From a virus (taxonomy: Duplodnaviria > Caudoviricetes): a stretch of 64,000 nucleotides of DNA. Numbering within the stretch: the first letter of the stretch is position 1; each line of letters begins with the position of its first letter. Below the pieces are notes generated by a model that worked only from the letters and a program-made list of their open reading frames with translations, had not been told where the DNA came from and searched no databases. The stretch covers positions 1 through 64,000 of IMG/VR virus record IMGVR_UViG_3300036833_000307; one strand, given 5' to 3'. The position numbers and the translations under genes were made by a program. Shown here piece by piece: positions 1 through 15,711 of this stretch.

Positions 1-2842
1 CTACTCGGCCAGCCAAATGCGTTGTCAGGTCGATACCACGCCCAGCCTTGCGGTGCGTGTAGCTGCCGGGCTCATCAGGTTTCTGCAAGCTTTTCCGGCG
101 CACTTTCTCCAATCGATCAGTGAGCGCAGCGACAAAGACTGGATCGTCCTGCTTGCCCATCCGACGCGCCTGGCTTAGCGCAATGGCGATAGCCTGCTTG
201 CGCGACTGCACCTTCGGCATCTTTCGCTTCGGCAATCCAGCACGAAACGAATGTAACTTGCCATGCTTGAACTCATGCATGGTCTGATGAATTTTCTCGC
301 GCGCTGCTGCCGAGGTCGGATAGCGCTGCTTGGCCATATCGCCCATCGGTTCGGCCAGCACCATCGGTCCCTTAGCCTGCAGCGGAAAGCCGGCCATGAC
401 GTTACGGGTATCGTTGGGATCGTGATAACTGAAATCGAGCGCATGCGCTGGCTCCCACTGATCGGAGCGCGCGGCACGCCATTGGCTAACCGTGTTGTCG
501 TCCTGCAGCAGGATGTTCTTGCGCAGCCGCTCGATCAGTTCGGCCTTCGCGGCATTGTTCTCGTCACGACTATGCGGCGCGAAGGCTGCACCGGTCAGGC
601 CGCCAGCGGCGAAGGTCGCGGCGGGATTACGCCGCGCCGCACGTCCAGCCAAGCCGCCTAGCGCTCCGCCCAGTTGGCGTGTCGTTGCCAATGGCTTGGC
701 ACGGAAAGCACGGCCAACCGTGCGTACCACTCCACCGAAGCCTGCTTTGCCCAACCGACGCTCGCCAGCCGCGTCCTCGCGCTGGTCGCGCTTGGTGCGC
801 TCATACTGAGCCATGGTCATGCCGAGCTTGCGTGCGCCGCGCCGATCCTCGCGCTCATCTTCGGCCGAGCCTTCATAAGCTTTGCGCATCCCATGGCGGG
901 ACAGCGCGGCCATTCTTTTGGCACCATATTTCCGGCGCCCGATCGCGGCTGCGACCGCACCAGGATCGCGAACTCCGCCACGATGCGCAATGCTACTTTC
1001 CAATGCCTTGAACCGCGCGCCCGAGCCGAGCTTCGGCTGCCGCTTGCGCAACTCATCGATCGGTTCCTGCTTGCTTGCCATCCGCTTAGGCCGCGGCGCC
1101 AACGCTCGCTCCGCCCGATTGCTGGCATGCCGCGTGCCCATTATGCCGGCTACATGACCAGCGACCGCGCCGGCTGCGGCGGCACCAATCACGCCACCGA
1201 CCAGTCGGTGCTTCTGCTTTGCCGTGAGCCTTGCGCCATGTGGCATCGTGGCTTCATGCAGCGCCAATGCCCGGCTCGCCGAGGGCGGCCCTCCGGGCCG
1301 GTGCCACTGTCCGTGCATGCCCTCCATGAACCGCGCATGACGAACGTTTCGTTCCGCGATATGCTCAGCAACCTTGGCGCCGATGCGCTTGCCAGCGTGA
1401 TATGCCACTTTGCCGCCAAGCACCGCGCCGGCCAGGCCGGCATGCGGCGCATAGCGGCGCGCGATCCGCGCGGCATGAACGCCCGCGGTGGCCGCCGCCC
1501 GCAGCACACCAGGATGCAGTTTCGAGAGATCGACCTGGCTCTCGGCCTTACCGGCGGTCCCCATGTCGGTATAGCCGGTACTGCTCGATGGCCGAGTATA
1601 AGCGCTGGTCGCGCCTTCACTCGATAACCCCGCTGATGGCGTCGGCGTCGCCGTGCCGGTCATCGTACCAGGCAGTTTCTTTTTGCCGTTAGTGGTCGGA
1701 CCCAGCGAAGCAGCAACAGGCGCGGGCGCAGCAGTGGGTGAGGTCGAGGTCGCCATCTGTTTGGCCAACCGCTCGTAGGGGGTCATGGCCTTCCTCACTG
1801 GCTTGCGGAAGCGTTTGCGCGGATAGGCGGTATCGGTGGCAGCCGCGAGTTGATCGCGCAGCTTTTCACGCAGCCGGTGCGCCGGATGAAACCCGTCGGC
1901 TTTGAAGAAGCTGCCACCTGGCCGCAGCTTTTTTGCCCGCACGACGCCGGTTACGCCACGCATTCCCGAATAGCCAGCCTTGTCGAGACTATCGCCATCG
2001 CTGTCATCCGACGGCGGCTTCGGCACCTTCGGCTTCTTCTTTTTGCCGCCGAACATGCCGCCGATCGCTGAGCCGCCGAAGCCGCCGATCGCGCCACCGA
2101 TCGCCGCACCGGGCAGTCCGCCGACCGCTGCGCCGAGCGCCTCGCCGGCGGTCGAGCCGATTTCGCCGCCGATCGCCTTGCCGGTGGACGAACCTTCGTC
2201 GTCGACCTGCGATCCCAGTGCAGTGCCAGCTGTACCACCAGCCGCGCCAGCCAGCATATGTGCCCATGGCGAGGCCTTGCGCAGCACCTCGCCGAAGGTT
2301 GGCGGCGGCAGCAACTCGGCAAAACTGCGCGGCATGCCTTTCAACATGACTTGCTCGGTCACGCCGTCGGATTTTGTCAGATCCATGATCCGTGCACTCG
2401 GGATGCACGGACTATCGACGAAAGAGATTTCCTGAATACGCGGTGTGTAGCGGGTATAGCCGGTCGGCTGGTCAGACCATTTTTTCAGATAGCCACCACC
2501 GATCGAGAAGCCGGTGTAACCACCCTCTGCGACCTTGATCCAATCGACCGGATCCAAGACCTTGACGCAGACATCAACCGCCTTGGCTTCATCGTTGTAG
2601 ATGATCTCGGCGATCTTGCCGGCCAGGTGCTTCGGGTTGTGCATGGCGCGGACGTTGCCGAAGCTCTTGCCGAGCGTGGCTTTGGCATAGCCGTCGCTCC
2701 ATTTCTGGAACTCCGGCTTGGCCGAGACGTAATCCATGATCTCACGCGACTTGTCGGGTTCCTCGACCGCCGCGCGGCCCCAGACCAGCTGTTTTCTCTC
2801 GTCCGCCTTGGTCAGCGGCAGGAAGAGGTTGAAGCCTTCCAT
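1..2842 (-). CDS. XkdF-type phage prohead serine protease with a >780-aa basic Gly/Ala/Arg-rich C-terminal extension (partial, runs off left edge)
   Basis: Absent from the ORF track because no stop lies in the window. Manual translation from ATG at 2842 gives MEGFNLFLPLTKADERKQLVWGRAAVEEPDKSREIMDY...NVRAMH...YTGFSIGG...EISFVDSPCIP and stays open to position 2. Contains a DUF6496-like segment (TMHEFKHGKLHS...KVQSRKQAIAIALSQARR). Confidence 0.85.
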   Translation of the reverse strand, partial: MEGFNLFLPLTKADERKQLVWGRAAVEEPDKSREIMDYVSAKPEFQKWSDGYAKATLGKSFGNVRAMHNPKHLAGKIAEIIYNDEAKAVDVCVKVLDPVDWIKVAEGGYTGFSIGGGYLKKWSDQPTGYTRYTPRIQEISFVDSPCIPSARIMDLTKSDGVTEQVMLKGMPRSFAELLPPPTFGEVLRKASPWAHMLAGAAGGTAGTALGSQVDDEGSSTGKAIGGEIGSTAGEALGAAVGGLPGAAIGGAIGGFGGSAIGGMFGGKKKKPKVPKPPSDDSDGDSLDKAGYSGMRGVTGVVRAKKLRPGGSFFKADGFHPAHRLREKLRDQLAAATDTAYPRKRFRKPVRKAMTPYERLAKQMATSTSPTAAPAPVAASLGPTTNGKKKLPGTMTGTATPTPSAGLSSEGATSAYTRPSSSTGYTDMGTAGKAESQVDLSKLHPGVLRAAATAGVHAARIARRYAPHAGLAGAVLGGKVAYHAGKRIGAKVAEHIAERNVRHARFMEGMHGQWHRPGGPPSASRALALHEATMPHGARLTAKQKHRLVGGVIGAAAAGAVAGHVAGIMGTRHASNRAERALAPRPKRMASKQEPIDELRKRQPKLGSGARFKALESSIAHRGGVRDPGAVAAAIGRRKYGAKRMAALSRHGMRKAYEGSAEDEREDRRGARKLGMTMAQYERTKRDQREDAAGERRLGKAGFGGVVRTVGRAFRAKPLATTRQLGGALGGLAGRAARRNPAATFAAGGLTGAAFAPHSRDENNAAKAELIERLRKNILLQDDNTVSQWRAARSDQWEPAHALDFSYHDPNDTRNVMAGFPLQAKGPMVLAEPMGDMAKQRYPTSAAAREKIHQTMHEFKHGKLHSFRAGLPKRKMPKVQSRKQAIAIALSQARRMGKQDDPVFVAALTDRLEKVRRKSLQKPDEPGSYTHRKAGRGIDLTTHLAGRV

Positions 2843-2848
2843 TGCCGT

Positions 2849-4315
2849 CTACGCGGCTTCGCGACGCACGATGACCGGCGATCTCGCCGGCTCCCAATCC
2901 ATGATGGCCTGGCCGAGATCGATCGGGATTTCCTCGGCCGTCGCCAATGCCTCGGCCACCCACTTCTTCAACTGGATTTGGTCAGGCTCGGCCTCTAGCC
3001 ATTCGGTCACGCTCGTATCGAGCGCTCGCTTGGCCAGACCTTGCTGCGGCAGTTGCCCACTCCAGGCCAGCAGATCAGCCGCATGGTTGGCGGCAGCGCC
3101 GGCAGCGAGGTCCTGGTCGTCTTCGTCGAGCTCGAGGATCGCCTCGATCATCTCGTCCGGCGCGATCTTCATGAGATCCTCAACGAATTCCGCCTTCGCG
3201 GCGGCTTCACCCTTCTTCTTCTTCTTACCGTTGCTCCACTGGCTGGGACCGTTGGTGTCGTCGTTCGTGACCGTGGCCACGCCGCTGCCGCTCTCGGAAC
3301 CGCGGACACTGCCCAGGCCTCCCGTGGTGCCCTTGCGACGGATGATGTCCGGATCGACCCCGCCATCGCCGGTATCGTTCGGGCCCGATCCTGGATCCGG
3401 GGTTTCACCATCACGTTGGTTGGGCGCCGGCGAACTGCCGCGCACTCGTTTGCCAGCGCCTTCAGAAGAACTGCGGCGCGGGATCGTACGCCGGATCGCC
3501 TGATCGGAACCTGTCTCGCTGCCATCGAGTTCGGCGCCGGCATGGCTCGGGGCATTGCCGATCACCTCACAGACCGGATCGCCGTCACCGTCGACACCAT
3601 CGGCGTAAATCCGGCGACCCGAAGCCGGCATGCCGGCGGTCAACACGTTTTTCTTGAGCTCGGTCTCAGCCGGATCGGCGGTCAGCCATGCGGTCATCGC
3701 CGCGTCGACCCGTTCATCCGGCTGGCCATATAGCGCGCCGATCAGATCGTTCATCTCGCGCGTGTAGTTGCCGATCTTGTGCAACAGATGCGCCCGCTTG
3801 GTATCGTCAATACAATTATCCACCATCTTGGCCAGCGCCTGTTCGGCTTCAGGCACCGGCGCTTGCTTGCGCAACGGGATTTCCTCGGCGCCGGCTGACG
3901 AATTCCACACCGCGCGTTTCAGCAGTTCGTCGCCTTCGGCGAACCACTGCTCGGCCACCTCGGCCGCCAGATCGTCATCGACGGTTGCCAGCATGTCGGC
4001 CTGCTTGGCCAATTCCTGACGATAGAACCCGATCTTAATGAGGATCTCAGCCTTGCGCTCAGGACTGCCGGCCGCTTCGACAAACTTGGCAAGTTCGCCA
4101 TCGAGGGTGGCCTGGATCTCGGCGGGATCGACTGCCATGGCTCTCTCCTGCTTGGTGACCGGTCCCGGTGGTCCGGTGCGACGTGGTTTGGGGGTGGCGG
4201 CGCGAACGCGGCGCTTGATCGGGCTATCCGTCTGCTCCTGGTTAAGCAGCACACGGCCACCGATTTCAGCGACGTCGGGGATGAGCAGCCCGGCATGGGA
4301 AAGCAGGTCGCTCAT
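2849..4315 (-). CDS. Hypothetical head-module protein (acidic, possible scaffold/internal protein)
   Basis: 488-aa ORF directly upstream of the protease, with many L-x-K motifs. Confidence 0.7.
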   Translation of the reverse strand: MSDLLSHAGLLIPDVAEIGGRVLLNQEQTDSPIKRRVRAATPKPRRTGPPGPVTKQERAMAVDPAEIQATLDGELAKFVEAAGSPERKAEILIKIGFYRQELAKQADMLATVDDDLAAEVAEQWFAEGDELLKRAVWNSSAGAEEIPLRKQAPVPEAEQALAKMVDNCIDDTKRAHLLHKIGNYTREMNDLIGALYGQPDERVDAAMTAWLTADPAETELKKNVLTAGMPASGRRIYADGVDGDGDPVCEVIGNAPSHAGAELDGSETGSDQAIRRTIPRRSSSEGAGKRVRGSSPAPNQRDGETPDPGSGPNDTGDGGVDPDIIRRKGTTGGLGSVRGSESGSGVATVTNDDTNGPSQWSNGKKKKKGEAAAKAEFVEDLMKIAPDEMIEAILELDEDDQDLAAGAAANHAADLLAWSGQLPQQGLAKRALDTSVTEWLEAEPDQIQLKKWVAEALATAEEIPIDLGQAIMDWEPARSPVIVRREAA

Positions 4316-4419
4316 GCGACGGCTCCTTGTAACGCTGGCGATCTGGGGTAATCATGCGAGCGAGCGCCGCCCTTGCCGGGGCAAGCGCTCGCTCTGACCC
4401 TACGGATGAGGAAGATCCG

Positions 4420-4962
4420 ATGAAGGCTCCACGCATCCTGCCGTCGCAGGAGTATCTTCGCGAGTGCTTCGACTACGATCCGCAGACTGGCGCGCTTCGC
4501 TGGCGAGTGCGACCGCGCGGGCATTTCTCTAACGATCATATCGAGGCCTCGTGGAACACTCGGCGCGCAGGAACAATCGCTGGCGCGCTTAGTGACGGTT
4601 ACCGCCTGGTCTGGATCAATTCCGAGGCGTTCAAAGCACATCGTGTGATCTGGAAATTGGTTGCCGGGGAAGAGCCAGCATCTCAGATCGATCACCTTAA
4701 CAATGACCGCTCCACCAACAGCCCTAAAAACCTTCGTGAAGCCAGCAATCAACAAAACCAGTTCAACAGAAGGGTTAGGAGCGACAACCCGTTCAAACTG
4801 AAGGGCGTTGCTCGCCAAAAAGGTAGACGGAAGGTTTACGCAAAAATTCGCATTGATGGCCACCAAGTTTGGCTTGGTTCGTTTAAAACGCCAGGAGAGG
4901 CGCATGCCGCTTATTGCCAAGCGGCCCAAAAATATCACGGCAAGTTTTGGAACCCAGGTTAG
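4420..4962 (+). CDS. HNH homing endonuclease with C-terminal AP2-like domain
   Basis: LRECFDYDPQTG...AHRVIWKL...IDHLNNDRSTNSPKNLREAS...WLGSFKTPGEAHAAY; antisense to the surrounding operon; GAGGA RBS before ATG 4420. Confidence 0.9.
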   Translation: MKAPRILPSQEYLRECFDYDPQTGALRWRVRPRGHFSNDHIEASWNTRRAGTIAGALSDGYRLVWINSEAFKAHRVIWKLVAGEEPASQIDHLNNDRSTNSPKNLREASNQQNQFNRRVRSDNPFKLKGVARQKGRRKVYAKIRIDGHQVWLGSFKTPGEAHAAYCQAAQKYHGKFWNPG

Positions 4963-7106: not shown

Positions 7107-8426
7107 ATGGCTGTTTCAGTGCCGACCATGGACGAGTTCAATGCGCTCGAGGCACGGGTTGCGGCACTCGAAGGTGCGCCGCCGGAGCTGCCCTCGGATA
7201 TCCCGCCCATTCAGGCCAAGCGCATTGCCGACCTGATCGAGCTGTTCGGCGTCAACACGTTCAGCCAGATCGACGACACCAACGTCTGGGGCAGCTATCC
7301 TTCGGACTATCGTTCGCAGACTGTCCTGGCAGCGCTCAAATACATGACCGGCACGACGAAGTTCTGCTTCGGCATCCGCGAGTATCACTACGCCGGGCGC
7401 GAGGTGATCCAGAAACCCTGGCTCGATGATATCAGGACTATCTACCCTAACAGCACAGTCACGATGTGTGTCAGCGCCAACGGCCAGGTCAGCGACGTGG
7501 CCTCAATGCTGCGAGTGGGTGGCGTCACTTACTTCGAGGGCATCAACGAACCGAACACCGATTTCGGCCAGGGTACCGTGCCGTTCGAGCAGACCAAGGC
7601 GATCCAGGACGAAGTCTGGATGCGCACCGAGACCATCGGCCAACAGCAAAACGTGGCCGGTCCGGCGATCGCTGCCGGCATGCCGAACCCGGAACAATGG
7701 ATCAAGGACTACTGCGGTAGCGGACTTGCTGCCCTGAACGCTGAGCTGCGGCACGGCAACGGCCATTATTACCCGCCGAGCTGCCCGGACCTCGCGCAAT
7801 CCGGCACTTCGCTCGCGGAGTATGCCGGCGGGCTACAGAACGCCTACGGGCAGCCGACGATGATCACCGAGTTCCATCCCTCGTTGCGCAGCACCGATGG
7901 CAACAAGCCGGGCGAAACCGGCTGGAGCGGCGATCGCGACGCCTATTACCTGCTGCTCAGCCTCTACCGCGCCGGCAAGCTCGGCATGCCGCTCTGGTGG
8001 TACGCCCTGTTCGATTATGCGGATGTCCATATCTGCGGGCTGTTCCCGCGCAACCAGCAGAACCCGCGCCCCGCGGCCACCGCGATGCGTAATCTCAGCA
8101 TCACCTGCGCCGATCCCGGTGACGACCTGCGAAGCTTCGCGCCAGGCACTCTGCAATGCCGCGCAACCGGCGAGGCCGGCGGGTGGGACTGGGATCTCTA
8201 CCAATCGAGCGACGGCAAGTTCTTCATCCCGCTCTGGCTGGCAGCGAAGGATCTCGGCGGCCCCTCCACCATGATCACCCTCGAACTGGCGAAGGTTCCT
8301 GCCGCGATCGCCCAATTCGATATCCGCACCGGCGCGCAGCTGCAGTTTCCCGAACCGCCGATGCAGGCGAAAACCTTCCATATCGAGCTCGATGCCAGCG
8401 CCCGGATGATCGTGATCCGGCCATGA
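7107..8426 (+). CDS. Glycoside hydrolase-like (clan GH-A type) protein
   Basis: FEGINEPN and MITEF candidate catalytic motifs; opposite strand to the head operon. Confidence 0.55.
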   Translation: MAVSVPTMDEFNALEARVAALEGAPPELPSDIPPIQAKRIADLIELFGVNTFSQIDDTNVWGSYPSDYRSQTVLAALKYMTGTTKFCFGIREYHYAGREVIQKPWLDDIRTIYPNSTVTMCVSANGQVSDVASMLRVGGVTYFEGINEPNTDFGQGTVPFEQTKAIQDEVWMRTETIGQQQNVAGPAIAAGMPNPEQWIKDYCGSGLAALNAELRHGNGHYYPPSCPDLAQSGTSLAEYAGGLQNAYGQPTMITEFHPSLRSTDGNKPGETGWSGDRDAYYLLLSLYRAGKLGMPLWWYALFDYADVHICGLFPRNQQNPRPAATAMRNLSITCADPGDDLRSFAPGTLQCRATGEAGGWDWDLYQSSDGKFFIPLWLAAKDLGGPSTMITLELAKVPAAIAQFDIRTGAQLQFPEPPMQAKTFHIELDASARMIVIRP

Positions 8427-8440
8427 TCGCCAGCTGAGCT

Positions 8441-8803
8441 TTACGGAACCGCCTGCACCACCCTAACCCCGGCCTCTCGCGCCTGTTGCATCATGTCACT
8501 GGTGCCCTTCTTGCCAGGAAAGGCGACGATGAGATTGGGCTTGCCTTCGAGCAGCATGCGCCGGTTGCGCATTGGACCGGCTGCTTTGCCATCGGCATGC
8601 CAGTAAGCGATGAAGCGCCTGGTGGGAACGCCGCGGCTGCCGGCCCAAGTCTCGGCCAGCGTGTCAGCGCCAGGTGCCGCGCCATGAATGAGCAGGCCGA
8701 TCGGCGTCGCCTTGTGCATCGCGTCGAGGTATCGACAAAGTCCATACCAATCGTCGAAGGTCCGGCCGCCGCAGACCAGGACGACGAGATCAACTCCGCT
8801 CAT
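8441..8803 (-). CDS. SLOG / YspA-like (DUF2493) protein
   Basis: VLVCGGRTF...IHGAAPGADTLA...AAGPMRNRRML...VAFPGKKGT. Confidence 0.85.
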   Translation of the reverse strand: MSGVDLVVLVCGGRTFDDWYGLCRYLDAMHKATPIGLLIHGAAPGADTLAETWAGSRGVPTRRFIAYWHADGKAAGPMRNRRMLLEGKPNLIVAFPGKKGTSDMMQQAREAGVRVVQAVP

Positions 8804-10270: not shown

Positions 10271-13108
10271 CTATGGGTTCGCAGGGTTGGGCAGGTCCGC
10301 CCACCGGTTGTGGCGATGTAGCAGACCTGCGGTTAGCGCTGTCGCTCCTCCCAACGCTGCACCCGCGGCGACAGCCTTCCGCGAGGCCCGAACTTTCACC
10401 CCTGCACGAACCACTTTCGCCCGGTGCATCGGTGCCATCGACGCTAGCAACTTCCCGCGCGCGCGTCCGCGCGAAAGCGCGGCAGCCAGGGCGCCCCCGG
10501 CGATCGCGCCGACGGCGGCACGTTCCGCCGGATGCTGCTGGAGATGATGCACCGCTGGTATCGCCGCCGCCCCAGCCAGAACGCCAGCCGTCGCAGGATG
10601 GCGCCGGGTGGCTCCGGCAATGCCGCGGCCAACCGCGCCAACGACCCGGCCAGCCGTCTTGATGCCGAACGCCTTGCCGAGCAGCGGCGCAGTAGCCGCG
10701 TGAAACTCCTGTACCTTCTGTTGCAGCGCCTCTCTACGCTTCTTCTCGCTGACGATCAGGCCTCCAGCCAGCGCCGCGGTCGGTGCAAGACCCGCGGTTC
10801 GACCAATATGGCCGCCGATCCGCGCGCCACGTTCGCCGCCGATCCCGGCGCCAACCATGCGGCCCAGGCGATAACCTTTGGATTTGGGCAGGAAGCCGCC
10901 CATCGCCTCGGCTTCCGCCATCGCTGCGGCCACTCGTGGATGGCCAAACACCCGGTGCGACAAGCCGCGGCCGAACTGCATGGCGTTGCCGATAACGCCC
11001 TTGCGCACCTGGCCCTGCTCCGGTTTTGGCGGTTTCACCGCCCTACCCGCCCGGTAAGCCGTGTAGGCCAACGGGACGTAGTCGCTAGCAAGTCCGATAT
11101 GGCCGCCGATCTTGGCGCCGCGCGCGCCACCGACGCCGGCACCCGCCATGCGTCCAGCGACCATTCCCGGAGCGAGCGCCGATTTCACGCCATGCTGGCG
11201 CACCGTCGCCACGCCCTCGCGACCAGCACGGGATGCACCACGGCCAACGCCGCGGGCAGCACGAGCGCCCAGCCGCAGCGCCGAACCGGCGATGCCGGTG
11301 AAGACTTTTTCGAGAGAATTGCCCAAAATCGGGCCGATTTCGGGATAAAATCCCGCCGAATACGCTCCTTCGATCTTGCCGAAACCGCGCCCGGCACCGA
11401 GCTGCCAACGCTCCTGGCGGGTGACGCCGCCACCCAGCGCATGGCGCAGGCCGCGCTGGGTATTCAATCTCAGCGTCATCCGCCGTCGGTGCATCCGCGG
11501 CCGCATGGCGCGCCGCAGCAACAGCGCCGGGCTCGAGGAGTAATTGCCGAACGAAGGCTCGGAATAGGGATTGCTGAGCGGGAAGCTGGCATTGACCTTG
11601 CGCAGCTCCGGGTCGGGCTGCGCGGCGAACGCAATCGGCACTGTCTTGCCCAAGAGATGCCGCTCAACCCGGCGGGCGGCGTGTTTTACGTGCAGCTTCG
11701 GATGAAAGCGCAGCGCGCGAGAAGCGCCAGCTATTCGGCTGAAAGTCTCCTCAGATGCAGGGATATCAAGGCGCGGAAGGCTGCCATGTGCAGTTCGTGA
11801 TGGCATGGCCGACATAGCCAATCCACCTCCAGTGGTTTTCCGTAATCCTGGTGATGTCTCTGCACCGCTGTCACCGAACCGCACAACCGGCATGGCTGCC
11901 GTTGTAATCGACCGCGGCGCGTGTACGTCGAGGCGTAAGACCGTGCGATGTCCTTCTTCTTCTGTTCCTCGTTGAGCGGATGATCCTTTCGCCATTCTCG
12001 CATGTAAGCGGCGTGACAGCCCCGGCAGTACCGCTGTCCCGATGACGCGTTCCGTTCCCGACACCTTGAGCAGAGACACTTGTGTTCCACGTGGGTCAAT
12101 CTTTCGCAGGCGTTTCAACCGTGAAACACGATAGAGAAGGCCGTCAGGCCTTGCACTCCCCTGGTCGGTCGGACCGCGACCGGGCGAGCGGACCACCCCA
12201 GTCGCGTTGGTCCAGCTTTTGGCCAGTTTCACAAGCCTTTCGTTGGGCCTCATGCGATACCGCTCCGTCCCAGTCAGCTTGCCGTGCTTGCGGCTGCGAA
12301 ATTTGTGGCCGAATTGCTGCTTGAACGGCTCAAAGGCGCCGGACGGCGCTTCGGTATGCAACCGATCGAACGTTCGCCGATGAGCGTAGCGCATGAACCG
12401 TTCGAGCGGCCGAAACTGCCGCCGCGCCACCGTATCCATTTTGAAATCGTAATCGCCAACCCCAGCGCGGTGCAACGCCAGCAGCGAGGCATGCTTGAAG
12501 GCCCGGGACGCAACACTGCGGGGCGTATCCTTCGGGATTAAGCCTTTCTCGTAGCCGCGTTCGATTGCGCCCGCCTGGTGTTCGCGCACCACGCCGACCG
12601 CGTGCTGCAGCACCGCCCTCATCTTCGGATGGCGCATCGCCTCGACGAAGACCTCGGGGTTCTCCACCACCAGATCCCTGTGGACTTTACTGGCGCCTGC
12701 CCGATAGCGGGCACCGGCGATCTTGCCACCGCGGGTAGCGGGCGCTTCAGACAGCATCTCGGCCACCAGCGGGCGCCCCTTCTGCCGCGGCGCCTGCTCG
12801 CCGGGCGGACTGCGGTAGGCGTCCGGAAAATGCAACCGGAAGCGAGCATTGATGGACCCAACCGGCGCTTCGGTAGTGCGGGTATCCCACACGCTGCGCC
12901 CGGCCCTGGTACCGCCCCGCGCCTGGCCCTGGCGGAACAGGCCGACCGCCGCGCGGGAGGGTGCGCCGGTCGAGCCCTGCCGCACCGAGGGCGCGGTTTC
13001 GCCGGGATGGCCAGCACGCCTGGCACGTGCCGACGCCTTGCCCGCTTCCGAGCGCTGGCGGCGCTCGGCCTCGCTCAATAGGCCGGTAGTGTCACGCTTG
13101 CGGAGCAC
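10271..13108 (-). CDS. Very basic 945-aa protein, probable internal head polyprotein
   Basis: Arg/Gly/Ala-rich glycine-zipper-like blocks separated by L/M/V-x-K motifs; lies in the head module between portal and gpF genes. Confidence 0.7.
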   Translation of the reverse strand: MLRKRDTTGLLSEAERRQRSEAGKASARARRAGHPGETAPSVRQGSTGAPSRAAVGLFRQGQARGGTRAGRSVWDTRTTEAPVGSINARFRLHFPDAYRSPPGEQAPRQKGRPLVAEMLSEAPATRGGKIAGARYRAGASKVHRDLVVENPEVFVEAMRHPKMRAVLQHAVGVVREHQAGAIERGYEKGLIPKDTPRSVASRAFKHASLLALHRAGVGDYDFKMDTVARRQFRPLERFMRYAHRRTFDRLHTEAPSGAFEPFKQQFGHKFRSRKHGKLTGTERYRMRPNERLVKLAKSWTNATGVVRSPGRGPTDQGSARPDGLLYRVSRLKRLRKIDPRGTQVSLLKVSGTERVIGTAVLPGLSRRLHARMAKGSSAQRGTEEEGHRTVLRLDVHAPRSITTAAMPVVRFGDSGAETSPGLRKTTGGGLAMSAMPSRTAHGSLPRLDIPASEETFSRIAGASRALRFHPKLHVKHAARRVERHLLGKTVPIAFAAQPDPELRKVNASFPLSNPYSEPSFGNYSSSPALLLRRAMRPRMHRRRMTLRLNTQRGLRHALGGGVTRQERWQLGAGRGFGKIEGAYSAGFYPEIGPILGNSLEKVFTGIAGSALRLGARAARGVGRGASRAGREGVATVRQHGVKSALAPGMVAGRMAGAGVGGARGAKIGGHIGLASDYVPLAYTAYRAGRAVKPPKPEQGQVRKGVIGNAMQFGRGLSHRVFGHPRVAAAMAEAEAMGGFLPKSKGYRLGRMVGAGIGGERGARIGGHIGRTAGLAPTAALAGGLIVSEKKRREALQQKVQEFHAATAPLLGKAFGIKTAGRVVGAVGRGIAGATRRHPATAGVLAGAAAIPAVHHLQQHPAERAAVGAIAGGALAAALSRGRARGKLLASMAPMHRAKVVRAGVKVRASRKAVAAGAALGGATALTAGLLHRHNRWADLPNPANP
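11731..12099 (-). CDS. HNH-like zinc-finger endonuclease nested out of frame in the 945-aa ORF
   Basis: CSRC...CRGC...QPCRLCG...RHHQDYGKPLEVDWLCRPCHHELH; same family as 52697-53167. Confidence 0.75.
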   Translation of the reverse strand: MTHVEHKCLCSRCRERNASSGQRYCRGCHAAYMREWRKDHPLNEEQKKKDIARSYASTYTRRGRLQRQPCRLCGSVTAVQRHHQDYGKPLEVDWLCRPCHHELHMAAFRALISLHLRRLSAE

Positions 13109-13637: not shown

Positions 13638-13858
13638 CGGCCGATCTCCCGGGTCTCGGACTGGATCTGAGGCTTCGACGCGCTGCGCTGATATCCGATC
13701 GCTTGTGCTTGCCGCTGATAGCCGGCCGCTTTTGCCTGCTGCAGCCGCACCAGCGCCTCTGTCACCGCATGGGAAGCCGCGATCGCCTGCTCGAGCGTCA
13801 ACTCCCGCAGCCGCACGATCCTCCCATCAAGGACGATCGCCTGGACATCACCCATCAC
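13634..13858 (-). CDS. Small hypothetical protein, paralogous to N-terminus of 13092-13637
   Basis: IVRLRELTLEQAI...VRLQQA vs IVHLSNLTLEEAI...VRLQQA. Confidence 0.6.
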   Translation of the reverse strand: MMGDVQAIVLDGRIVRLRELTLEQAIAASHAVTEALVRLQQAKAAGYQRQAQAIGYQRSASKPQIQSETREIGR

Positions 13859-15711
13859 CGCCTGCCTTTCATCCGTGCCGCATGCTGGCGGGCCACGCGC
13901 TCGCCCTCGGCCAGCGCCGCCTGTACCCCCGGATGCTGATGAAACGGAATGACATTGCCGGCGCCGCCCGGTACCACCTGATCGGTGGCTCCGCTCGAAG
14001 GCACCGAAATATTCGGATTGCGGCTGCCAAAGTCCACGCCGCCTGGCGCCGTCGGCTGATCCTGGTTTACCGGTGGTGCAGCACCAGCACCGCCAGCACC
14101 GCCAGCATGACCAGCAGCGTTAAGACTAGCGGAATTGCCCACCTCAGCGGGATCGATCCCGAGCGCCTGAAGGATTTCCGGCGGGAGGCTTTCGACGAGC
14201 TGGTCGACATTCTGGCCATTGCCGCCAGCCATTCCTGCACCTTCGGCACCTGGTGCGGGGGCTTGCGGCAATCCGGTGACGTCCCAGCCATTGGCGATGA
14301 CCTTCTTCACCCCGTCGATCGACATGAAGCCCATCGGGCCGATGCCACGGATGAATGGCGGCACGCCCAACGGCTCCATGCCGCGCTCGGTGCGGATGTC
14401 ATCGAGCGAGATCGCGCCCTCGTTAGCAAGCGTGACGTCGCGCTGCTCTTTCTCAGCCGGATCCACTTTCCTGACATCATCCCAAACCATCTCGATGTCG
14501 GCGAACCCGAACCACTGGACAATGATGAAATCGATCAGTCCCTTGATCCAGGTCATCAAGGGCATCAGGCCTTCCTGCAGCGCCTCTTCATACATCGTCT
14601 CGCCAGTCGCCCGGTTGACCAGGCGGACGAACGGTGTCGGCGGCAAGCTGAAGCAGAAGGCGATGATGCGGGCCAGCCACTCGTCGAACTGGTCGACCAG
14701 CGCCTCCGGCGAGCGCGTCATCACCGGCGATACCCCACCGGGAGCGAACCGCATTTTGCGGCGAGTGACAGCGTCGTTGACGACGCTATCCCAGTACGAC
14801 TGGAACTCGGCGATCTGCTGTGTCGACCAGTTCTGCGGCACTTGCCAGACCGCGTCCGGTATCGTGCCATCGGTGAAATAGGCGAGTTGCTGCGCCTGGC
14901 GCCGCAGCCCGATGTTCACCGTGACCAGTACTTGTTCCACACAGCTTTGGCCGTAGGCCTTATGGACGCGCCGGTTCCGCGGCGCATACAGCAACTCATC
15001 CTTGGTGAAATCGGCGGCGACGATGCCTTTGAGAATCTGCTGGTAGGCCGGACCTTCGGTCGGCGTACGGCCGTCGTAGTTCAACAGCGGCTTCACCGAA
15101 GCCCCGTCGATCAATTCGATCCCGATGGTCGAGCCGTCGCGCGCCCGCTTGCGCAGGATGGAGGCGGCATCGATGACCAGATGCTCCTCGGTCAGTTGCC
15201 CAATCCACTGCTGCCACTCGGTTTCGCCATCAGGCCGCTCGAACATCCGCTCGAGTTGCTGACAGCGCGCGTCGGCCTTCGGCCGGGTCGCCATGTCATT
15301 GGTCTTACGCGGCAGGATCGATTTCTTGAGGTTGCCGATCTGGTCCTTGCGGGTCTCGATCGCCAGCCGGATCAGGTCGTAGCCGCCGAGCGCCGGATCA
15401 GCGATCGAGCGCAGGAGATCGAAGCTGATCGGTTCGTAAGATCGCGGCGTGTAAATCGTGTTGTAGCTGGTCGGGTAGTCGAACCGCCGGCCGCCAGCAC
15501 CGGGCGCCACCGGATCGAGTGGCCGCCCTGGCGGAAAGAACGGCAATTCTGTCGAGCCTGGCTGATTGGCCCCGAGCCAGGAGCGGATCTGTCCGGAGAT
15601 GCGCGCGATCAGCCCGGGCTCAACCGGGGTCGAGGGCGCATTGTCCCGGCTGAGACCAGGCAGGTTCCAGGGCCTGGGATTAGGGTTCCAGGGCGACGGC
15701 GTCAGCGCCAC
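13855..15711 (-). CDS. Portal protein
   Basis: IELIDGASVKPLL...AYQQI...YGQSCVE...YFTDGTIPD...DEWLARIIAFCFSLPP...DDIRTERGMEP; downstream of TerL. Confidence 0.9.
   Translation of the reverse strand: MALTPSPWNPNPRPWNLPGLSRDNAPSTPVEPGLIARISGQIRSWLGANQPGSTELPFFPPGRPLDPVAPGAGGRRFDYPTSYNTIYTPRSYEPISFDLLRSIADPALGGYDLIRLAIETRKDQIGNLKKSILPRKTNDMATRPKADARCQQLERMFERPDGETEWQQWIGQLTEEHLVIDAASILRKRARDGSTIGIELIDGASVKPLLNYDGRTPTEGPAYQQILKGIVAADFTKDELLYAPRNRRVHKAYGQSCVEQVLVTVNIGLRRQAQQLAYFTDGTIPDAVWQVPQNWSTQQIAEFQSYWDSVVNDAVTRRKMRFAPGGVSPVMTRSPEALVDQFDEWLARIIAFCFSLPPTPFVRLVNRATGETMYEEALQEGLMPLMTWIKGLIDFIIVQWFGFADIEMVWDDVRKVDPAEKEQRDVTLANEGAISLDDIRTERGMEPLGVPPFIRGIGPMGFMSIDGVKKVIANGWDVTGLPQAPAPGAEGAGMAGGNGQNVDQLVESLPPEILQALGIDPAEVGNSASLNAAGHAGGAGGAGAAPPVNQDQPTAPGGVDFGSRNPNISVPSSGATDQVVPGGAGNVIPFHQHPGVQAALAEGERVARQHAARMKGRR

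Follow-up and report, generated by a model that had tools for sequence, protein, structure and literature searches.

In T4 and in the phiKZ-like giant phages, head-internal proteins are known to be processed by the prohead protease, and the genes for this cargo are separate. After entering the procapsid, the internal proteins of T4 and the ejection proteins of phiKZ and SPN3US are trimmed at a short motif by the prohead protease and remain with the DNA (PMC5694885, PMC10052503, PMC9026906). In the family studied here, the presumptive cargo is instead strung onto the protease, and relatives vary this cargo module by module. We analysed a stretch of 64,000 nucleotides (the window), corresponding to positions 1 to 64,000 of IMG/VR record IMGVR_UViG_3300036833_000307 from an uncultured phage of the Caudoviricetes. 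On its minus strand, at 2..2842, lies a 947-codon open reading frame (ORF) with an open 3′ end, leaving the window at the window's start. We propose that this protease-cargo ORF encodes a prohead protease fused in cis to a cargo of ~1040 residues, which, as sequence comparisons suggest, is probably packaged in the procapsid and cut after the Lys of [LM]-x-K sites into small proteins.

The source record (G000) is a viral contig of 102,563 bases whose terminal 127 bases are identical at both ends, indicating a circular assembly. Read across the contig junction, the ORF comprises 1226 codons (G000 101598..102436 plus 1..2842), with its stop at G000 101598. A sister-phage protein (L005; 1273 residues, 50% identity) is colinear with the ORF across the junction in pairwise alignment, and the join is therefore taken as real. 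The part outside the window (G000 101598-102436; L002:662-1627:-) extends to residue 1226 and completes a His-rich region (residues 922-1149) that is followed by a glycine zipper and an acidic end. The 127-base 'direct terminal repeat' (window 1-127 = G000 102437-102563) splits this conserved gene; it probably reflects the k-mer overlap left by an assembler on a genome that is circular or permuted, and not a physical terminal repeat.

The first 168 residues of the protein very likely form a prohead protease of the HK97/T4-gp21/herpesvirus fold, with Ser113 and His68 as its predicted catalytic residues. AlphaFold2 modelling with an 18-sequence alignment (A1) reached a predicted local distance difference test score of 82.6, against 29 from the single sequence of residues 1-192. 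The three best Foldseek matches of the model are the chains of gp21, the capsid assembly protease of T4 (5jbl; probability 1.0, E about 1e-4), followed by herpesvirus assemblins, the proteases of human cytomegalovirus, Epstein–Barr virus and Kaposi's sarcoma-associated herpesvirus. His68 and Ser113 are invariant in the 18 aligned relatives. In an hhalign comparison with an alignment probability of only 2.7%, Ser113 stands opposite the catalytic Ser114 of HK97 gp4, and EIS..D.PC opposite EIS…PAN of HK97. The domain also matches a PHROG family of head maturation proteases (phrog_9427, E 1.8e-5), and a distant relative, P0112, carries PF04586 (Peptidase_S78); PDB sequence and profile searches returned chance matches only. 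At the domain end, F-x-x-[LM]-x-K is found at the position of K189 in nearly all of the 18 relatives, the short free-standing ones included.

The tail that follows the protease amounts to ~110 kDa with a net charge of +68 and an isoelectric point (pI) of 10.4. The initial annotation of this DNA, made from the letters alone, had read the frame as a prohead protease followed by small basic modules bounded by lysine sites. The protease is borne out by the fold match and the conserved Ser/His pair, and each of the 12 sites listed at the time is present (K189, K288, K351, K361, K441, K600, K654, K699, K775, K838, K897 and K913). The 'small basic modules' hold in so far as the tail is modular and basic, but a large part of it is glycine-zipper sequence. 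The module-by-module search with hidden Markov models that had been suggested gave the glycine zipper and DUF6496, but no other Pfam or PHROG family. Residues 190-288 match PF13488 (Gly-zipper_Omp) at the cut-off (E 1.8e-5, 25 bits), their PHROG matches being glycine-zipper stretches of tape-measure proteins. The DUF6496-like module recognized earlier is firm: PF20106 aligns to residues 844-897 at 50 bits (cut-off 24; E 3.7e-13), over profile positions 3-52 of 58. Among the ten segments scanned against Pfam and PHROG, residues 289-600, 601-654, 700-838 and 914-1226 gave sub-threshold noise only, and the His-rich region (residues 955-1150) had no usable match in the ESM Atlas.

As the initial annotation had supposed, modules of the tail resemble stand-alone small phage proteins: both 'KLGSGARFK…IGRRKYG' and 'YEGSAEDERED' match free-standing proteins of 60-90 residues, which are frequent in metagenomes of viruses. 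A HMMER pass with residues 590-700 against 1.84 billion representatives (threshold E <= 1e-3) matched 773 cluster representatives, most of them proteins of 58-100 residues that align over almost their whole length. In alignment, the predicted 601-654 product is co-extensive with the conserved core of the free-standing KLGSG family. No fewer than 429 IMG/VR loci encode this module; of 83 ORFs that carry it, 71 have at most 100 residues. In all four loci checked, the free-standing KLGSG gene has genes for virion structure or packaging as its neighbours; in one of them (L036) it stands between MuF and the major head protein. The YEGSAED module has free-standing relatives of 61-71 residues (P0161, P0235, P0247). 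Neither set of free-standing relatives belongs to a Pfam or PHROG family. The small 'KLGSGxRF…IGRKKYG' proteins (loci L013-L092; P0113-P0262) are themselves candidates for a new domain family associated with virions. No A1-type protease was found within 8 kb of free-standing KLGSG genes in 80 viral loci, and the KLGSG family is thus not tied to this protease clade. The combination of this protease with a long tail is seen in at least 92 protein clusters, about 35 of them with DUF6496.

Comparison of relatives places [LM]-x-K at the edges of exchanged segments. Between the ORF and L005, the KLGSG module is swapped for unrelated sequence exactly between LRK/LSK and MRK/VTK (K600, K654). Residues 315-441 are absent from L005; this insertion begins after FFK314, where L005 has MFK, and ends with LSK441. 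Conversely, L005 carries 55 extra residues after RRMGK that are readable as one inserted module ending in VEK. A further relative, L006, carries glycine-zipper modules in a tandem of three, all of them closed by …QERRG[DN]L[DE]K. In the wider family, the position of DUF6496 within the protein (254-1142) and its flanking sequence vary, while [LM]-x-K is found ~15 residues before its MHEFKHG core in 30 of 31 listed family sequences; ARR/GR[LMV]GK follows the module in about 20 listed sequences, with variant endings in others. Four family sequences end just past the spacer of residues 898-913, and ten BLAST high-scoring segment pairs (HSPs) stop at residue 913. These alignments support [LM]-x-K as a mark of module borders in the studied phage and in its family.

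The motif is also in excess. In the ORF, [LM].K occurs 20 times against 8.6 expected, a count reached in 0 of 2000 shuffles, with the reverse motif at 14 against 8.7. Three other proteins encoded nearby behave in the same way: the scaffold-like protein (13 against 2.6, no excess of the reverse motif), orf488 (11 against 2.5, reverse motif 0) and orf945 (12 against 4.4). The MuF-like protein shows no [LM].K enrichment. In a baseline-corrected ranking of all 93 predicted proteins, the top four are the scaffold, orf488, orf945 and the protease-cargo ORF, in that order, and all four are encoded between portal and capsid. The excess recurs in L005, in L006, in a third relative (L008) and in the cultured Brevundimonas phage Polewnik, but not in their MuF, portal or capsid proteins, and weakly in terminase (5 against 2.5). 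When all residue pairs at gaps 0-3 were counted in the extensions of 92 family members, L.K came first (619 against 258), G...G second and M.K third; in total, [LM].K was observed 812 times against 345 expected, and its reverse 319 times against 347. A P1′ Gln was also considered as part of the motif, with 13 cases of [LM]-x-K-Q in head proteins and 1 elsewhere, but was dropped because relatives do not keep it.

A further place for the motif is the capsid protein. Five capsid proteins contain one [LM]-x-K each, at the same place ~30 residues from the start and just before the conserved part (SPLAK/AWLQ, SPLAK/AFLQ, SPLTK/FFVQ, GDLAK/AWVQ and EGLAK/STFA, the slash standing after the Lys). The precedent for cleavage after Lys that the initial annotation had invoked is sound: the HK97 capsid protein is cleaved at K103/S104 (PMC10275583), and the capsid protein and Ccm of staphylococcal phage phi12 are cut after R128 and K87 (PMC8569155). 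The HK97 sequence …GAKTFNK/SLGSDADS has a hydrophobic P3 and Lys at P1, and LMK, LTK and LIK occur in the delta domain of HK97. A hydrophobic-x-Lys rule is therefore in line with what is seen for this protease class at the HK97 and phi12 sites.

The genes around the ORF form a head module on the minus strand. It runs from portal through small ORFs, orf945, a few further ORFs, the MuF-like protein and an HNH endonuclease (on the opposite strand) to orf488, and continues with the protease-cargo ORF, orf1584, a scaffold-like protein of ~500 residues, a major capsid protein of 513 residues, a head-tail adaptor and the tail tube. The major capsid protein was assigned through phrog_13692 and through tblastn matches to annotated capsid proteins of Arthrobacter phages. 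The protease-cargo gene is the second of four translationally coupled genes between the MuF and capsid genes (orf488, protease-cargo, orf1584, scaffold), with a four-base overlap between its stop and the start of orf1584; in L005, L006 and L008, the ORFs for protease fusion, big protein and scaffold overlap by four bases or less. A protease gene between portal/MuF and the major capsid gene is likewise found in L005, L006, L008 and Polewnik. The ORF is one of four coupled genes for head-internal proteins rather than a stand-alone device; the observation of the initial annotation is confirmed and its interpretation partly supported. Coordinates are collected in Table 1.

Table 1. Segments of the protease-cargo ORF and neighbouring head genes in the window (residue numbers refer to the ORF product)
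Feature	Position	Strand	Evidence or assignment
Residues 1-168, very likely prohead (capsid-maturation) protease domain	2339..2842	(-)	Invariant His68, Ser113 (GFSIGG)
Residues 169-189, linker ending FGEVLRK189/A	2276..2338	(-)	Proposed protease self-release site
Residues 190-288, glycine zipper, KKKKPKVPKPP, acidic tail to SLDK288	1979..2275	(-)	PF13488
Residues 289-441, basic stretch and Thr/Ser/Pro-rich insert	1520..1978	(-)	Pairwise alignment with L005
Residues 442-600, very basic (net +18), two glycine-zipper stretches, ending ELRK600	1043..1519	(-)	Conserved in L005
Residues 601-654, 'KLGSGxRF…IGRKKYG' module (net +12), from after ELRK600 to GMRK654	881..1042	(-)	Free-standing relatives
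Residues 655-699, 'YEGSAEDxxED…AAGERRLGK' module	746..880	(-)	Free-standing relatives; phrog_31625 E 5e-4
Residues 700-775, basic glycine-zipper module, ending RLRK775	518..745	(-)	
Residues 776-838, acidic conserved module (NILLQDDNTVSQW…), ending DMAK838	329..517	(-)	Conserved in L005, L006
Residues 839-897, DUF6496 module (net +13), from after DMAK838 to RRMGK897	152..328	(-)	PF20106
Residues 898-913, 16-residue spacer QDDPVFVAALTDRLEK913	104..151	(-)	Conserved after DUF6496 in many relatives
Residues 914-947, start of last, His-rich conserved region	2..103	(-)	No Pfam/PHROG family match
orf488, acidic (net -28), upstream partner	2849..4315	(-)	Likely scaffold-like protease substrate
MuF-like head morphogenesis protein, 692 residues	4965..7043	(-)	PF04233 E 4.7e-10; phrog_3517 E 1e-61
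orf945, between portal and MuF	10271..13108	(-)	Candidate further protease substrate; no Pfam match
Portal protein, start of head module	13855..15711	(-)	PF04860 E 9e-14

Several neighbours are of interest in their own right. In the MuF-like protein, the MuF domain occupies only the last ~250 of 692 residues, and the Arg-rich N-terminal ~430 residues are without a family match. The HNH_3 endonuclease ORF (window 4354-4962 (+), Pfam E 7.8e-13) lies between the MuF and orf488 genes, which abut in L005, L006 and L008; it therefore resembles a homing-endonuclease insertion into the head operon. Between orf945 and MuF are an ORF with a weak glycosyl-hydrolase-core match just under the cut-off (window 7107-8426 (+), PF11790 E 3e-4) and one of the SLOG/YAcAr family (window 8441-8803 (-), PF10686 E 6e-20). 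On the other side of the ORF, outside the window, orf1584 (L003:12848-17602 (-) = G000 96847-101601) encodes a basic protein (+47) rich in glycine-zipper stretches; it had no Pfam or PHROG match, and a counterpart of 1597-1657 residues is kept in relatives.

In the nearest cultured phages, Polewnik and Strzyga of Brevundimonas, the gene directly ahead of that for the capsid encodes a protein of 593 residues. Over its first 165 residues this protein shares 51% identity with the N-terminus of the ORF, and its C-terminal end matches the separate scaffold gene of the studied phage (E 1e-5); the fused tail of the ORF has no similarity to the Polewnik scaffold. The simplest history is a protease-scaffold fusion that, in the lineage of the studied phage, has ~2600 extra residues (the ORF tail plus orf1584) between protease and scaffold.

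We suggest the following course of events for the proposed cargo. The protease-cargo protein would be built into the procapsid together with the scaffold; there the protease would be activated and would cut after the Lys of [Leu/Met]-x-Lys, freeing itself at K189. It would remove ~30 residues from the capsid protein, and the acidic scaffold-like proteins would be shredded and then exit the capsid. Its own tail would be chopped into glycine-zipper peptides and the 54-residue KLGSG, 45-residue YEGSAED and 59-residue DUF6496 modules. The basic products would remain on the DNA side and probably be delivered along with it, and membranes may be the target of the glycine-zipper peptides. While the ORF, the fold, the modules and the placement of the motif are observed, the packaging and cutting of the protein, the retention of its products and any function of theirs, including the DNA condensation or injection envisaged in the initial annotation, are inferred.

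A number of observations weigh against this proposal. For the motif, the remaining phage proteome already has a 1.43-fold [LM].K excess, orf1584 shows little excess (11 observed, 6 expected), and the members of the family are related, so that the family-wide z-scores are inflated. The enrichment over other lysine contexts, whose absence the initial annotation had named as refuting it, is borderline in the ORF alone (p = 0.06; p = 0.15 for the extension alone) but is found when head-internal proteins are pooled against the rest of the proteome (p = 6e-5); the counts across the family and the placement of the sites make the stronger case. For the borders, lysines at sites are conserved with L005 in 11 of 15 cases versus 27 of 57 for other lysines, which is not significant (p 0.09), and BLAST HSP borders near sites exceed random ~2-fold, a modest effect (starts p 0.07, ends p 0.012). 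The ARRMGK and RRLGK sites lie inside conserved modules and could be domain sequence rather than a cut signal; as the free-standing YEGSAED proteins end in a similar RRL.K, part of the coincidence with borders could be domain sequence. For the protease, PF14550 (XkdF) scores 16.6 bits (E 0.008), under its cut-off of 24, PF04586 had no match to the domain in the Pfam scan, and the hhalign probability to HK97 gp4 is low. The proposal also offers no explanation of how a protein that lacks a fused scaffold would reach the procapsid.

Alternatively, the tail might be an enlarged sacrificial scaffold or core, on the pattern of P2 gpO, Mu gpI or the Brevundimonas proteins, that assists procapsid building and is then degraded at its Lys sites and expelled, with no product kept or functional later. 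In the closest cultured relatives this protease is indeed joined to a scaffold, scaffold-like proteins have the highest density of the motif, and tail-bearing relatives range freely in length from 827 to 1570 residues. A separate scaffold gene exists, however, homologous to the end of the Polewnik scaffold. The tail is strongly basic and orf1584 basic (+47), whereas the scaffold (-37) and orf488 are acidic, and the modules are conserved families that also occur as free-standing genes in virion clusters, which is unexpected for a disposable spacer. We regard a purely sacrificial tail as unlikely.

Less probable still is that the giant product remains uncut and acts as an internal or ejection protein, its motif serving a structural or binding role, such as helix periodicity or contact with the capsid shell, in place of cleavage. 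Some large internal proteins are indeed packaged uncut, for example the N4 virion RNA polymerase (PMC5512222), and both the L.K excess in unrelated proteins of this phage and the sites inside conserved modules would fit. On the other hand, the motif is directional, its reverse not being enriched; it flanks exchanged modules, closes the protease domain and occupies one conserved N-terminal place in five capsid proteins; and it agrees with the known preference of HK97-type proteases for Lys at P1 (PMC10275583). That the cargo is mainly membrane-active, with ejected glycine-zipper peptides from the ORF and orf1584 entering the host envelope to aid DNA entry and the basic modules as accessories, is just as improbable as an account of the whole, given that the phage has its own tail tube and a 2023-residue ORF as candidate tape-measure protein, and that exit of the peptides from the capsid is conjectural; the glycine-zipper matches to Pfam and to tape-measure proteins, the second rank of G...G in the family and the multiplied zippers of L006 speak for it, and it is compatible with in-capsid cleavage of the cargo, mostly refining the function of part of that cargo.

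If the proposed cuts are real, DUF6496 would belong inside the virion, together with two families of small viral proteins that are very common but unnamed; substrates of this protease clade could be predicted by the simple rule [LM]-x-K, and the fusion would be a natural route for loading passenger proteins into capsids. A more tentative extension, which we consider possible but hold with less confidence than the cleavage itself, is that the protease fusion is a general loading platform: basic virion proteins (DUF6496, KLGSG, YEGSAED) would shuttle between free-standing genes and the protease tail and be released in the capsid at Leu/Met-x-Lys, where they would play a part comparable to that of protamines or of the core peptides of adenovirus, or else be injected in a first wave. 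Such a platform, if true, would give functions to several large families of small proteins and offer a natural rule for designing phage heads that carry foreign proteins. In the literature on DUF6496 and prohead-protease polyproteins, coverage of which was incomplete and makes for weak evidence of novelty, we found no description of this architecture. Each element has a known precedent; what appears to be new is a prohead protease in cis with a variable chain of small, mostly basic modules that are also free-standing.

Among the systems to which this arrangement can be compared, the adenovirus core precursors pVII and pX/mu, cut by the adenovirus protease (PMC4246237), likewise yield small basic DNA-associated peptides in the capsid through a maturation protease that recognizes a short motif with an upstream hydrophobic residue. 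With an unrelated protease, precursors encoded by separate genes and a eukaryotic host, adenovirus offers an analogy only. Polyvalent proteins are multi-module proteins delivered with the DNA, proposed to be cut by an embedded peptidase and often linked to MuF or head genes (Iyer et al. 2017, PMC5512222). They combine enzymatic effector domains with a zincin-like MPTase, the processing peptidase in that account, whereas in the ORF the peptidase is the prohead protease itself; in the main text of that paper, the word 'prohead' was located in the reference list only. Pfam and PHROG scans of every segment of the ORF gave only the glycine zipper and DUF6496 and no effector enzyme.

HK97 gp4 and T4 gp21 (MEROPS S78/S77, assemblin fold) share the fold, a similar Ser/His spacing, a gene placed before the capsid gene and, in HK97, cleavage after Lys; yet these proteases have ~200-225 residues with a short targeting tail, whereas the protein studied here holds >1000 residues of modular cargo in the same polypeptide. 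Protease-scaffold fusions, which include P2 gpO, Mu gpI/Z and lambda C/Nu3, and to which the Polewnik and Strzyga proteins belong, are likewise N-terminal proteases on a longer head-assembly protein that the protease cuts. In these fusions the scaffold is part of the same polypeptide; the ORF lacks a scaffold domain alongside its protease, and in the studied phage the scaffold is a separate gene and the fused part is basic, non-scaffold-like and made up of modules with free-standing relatives. The cargos of T4, phiKZ and SPN3US, finally, are partly basic as well, but are separate genes with their own targeting peptides and other motifs (L/I-x-E in T4), whereas in the studied phage, known here from sequence alone, a cargo chain of 45-160-residue units is fused to the protease.

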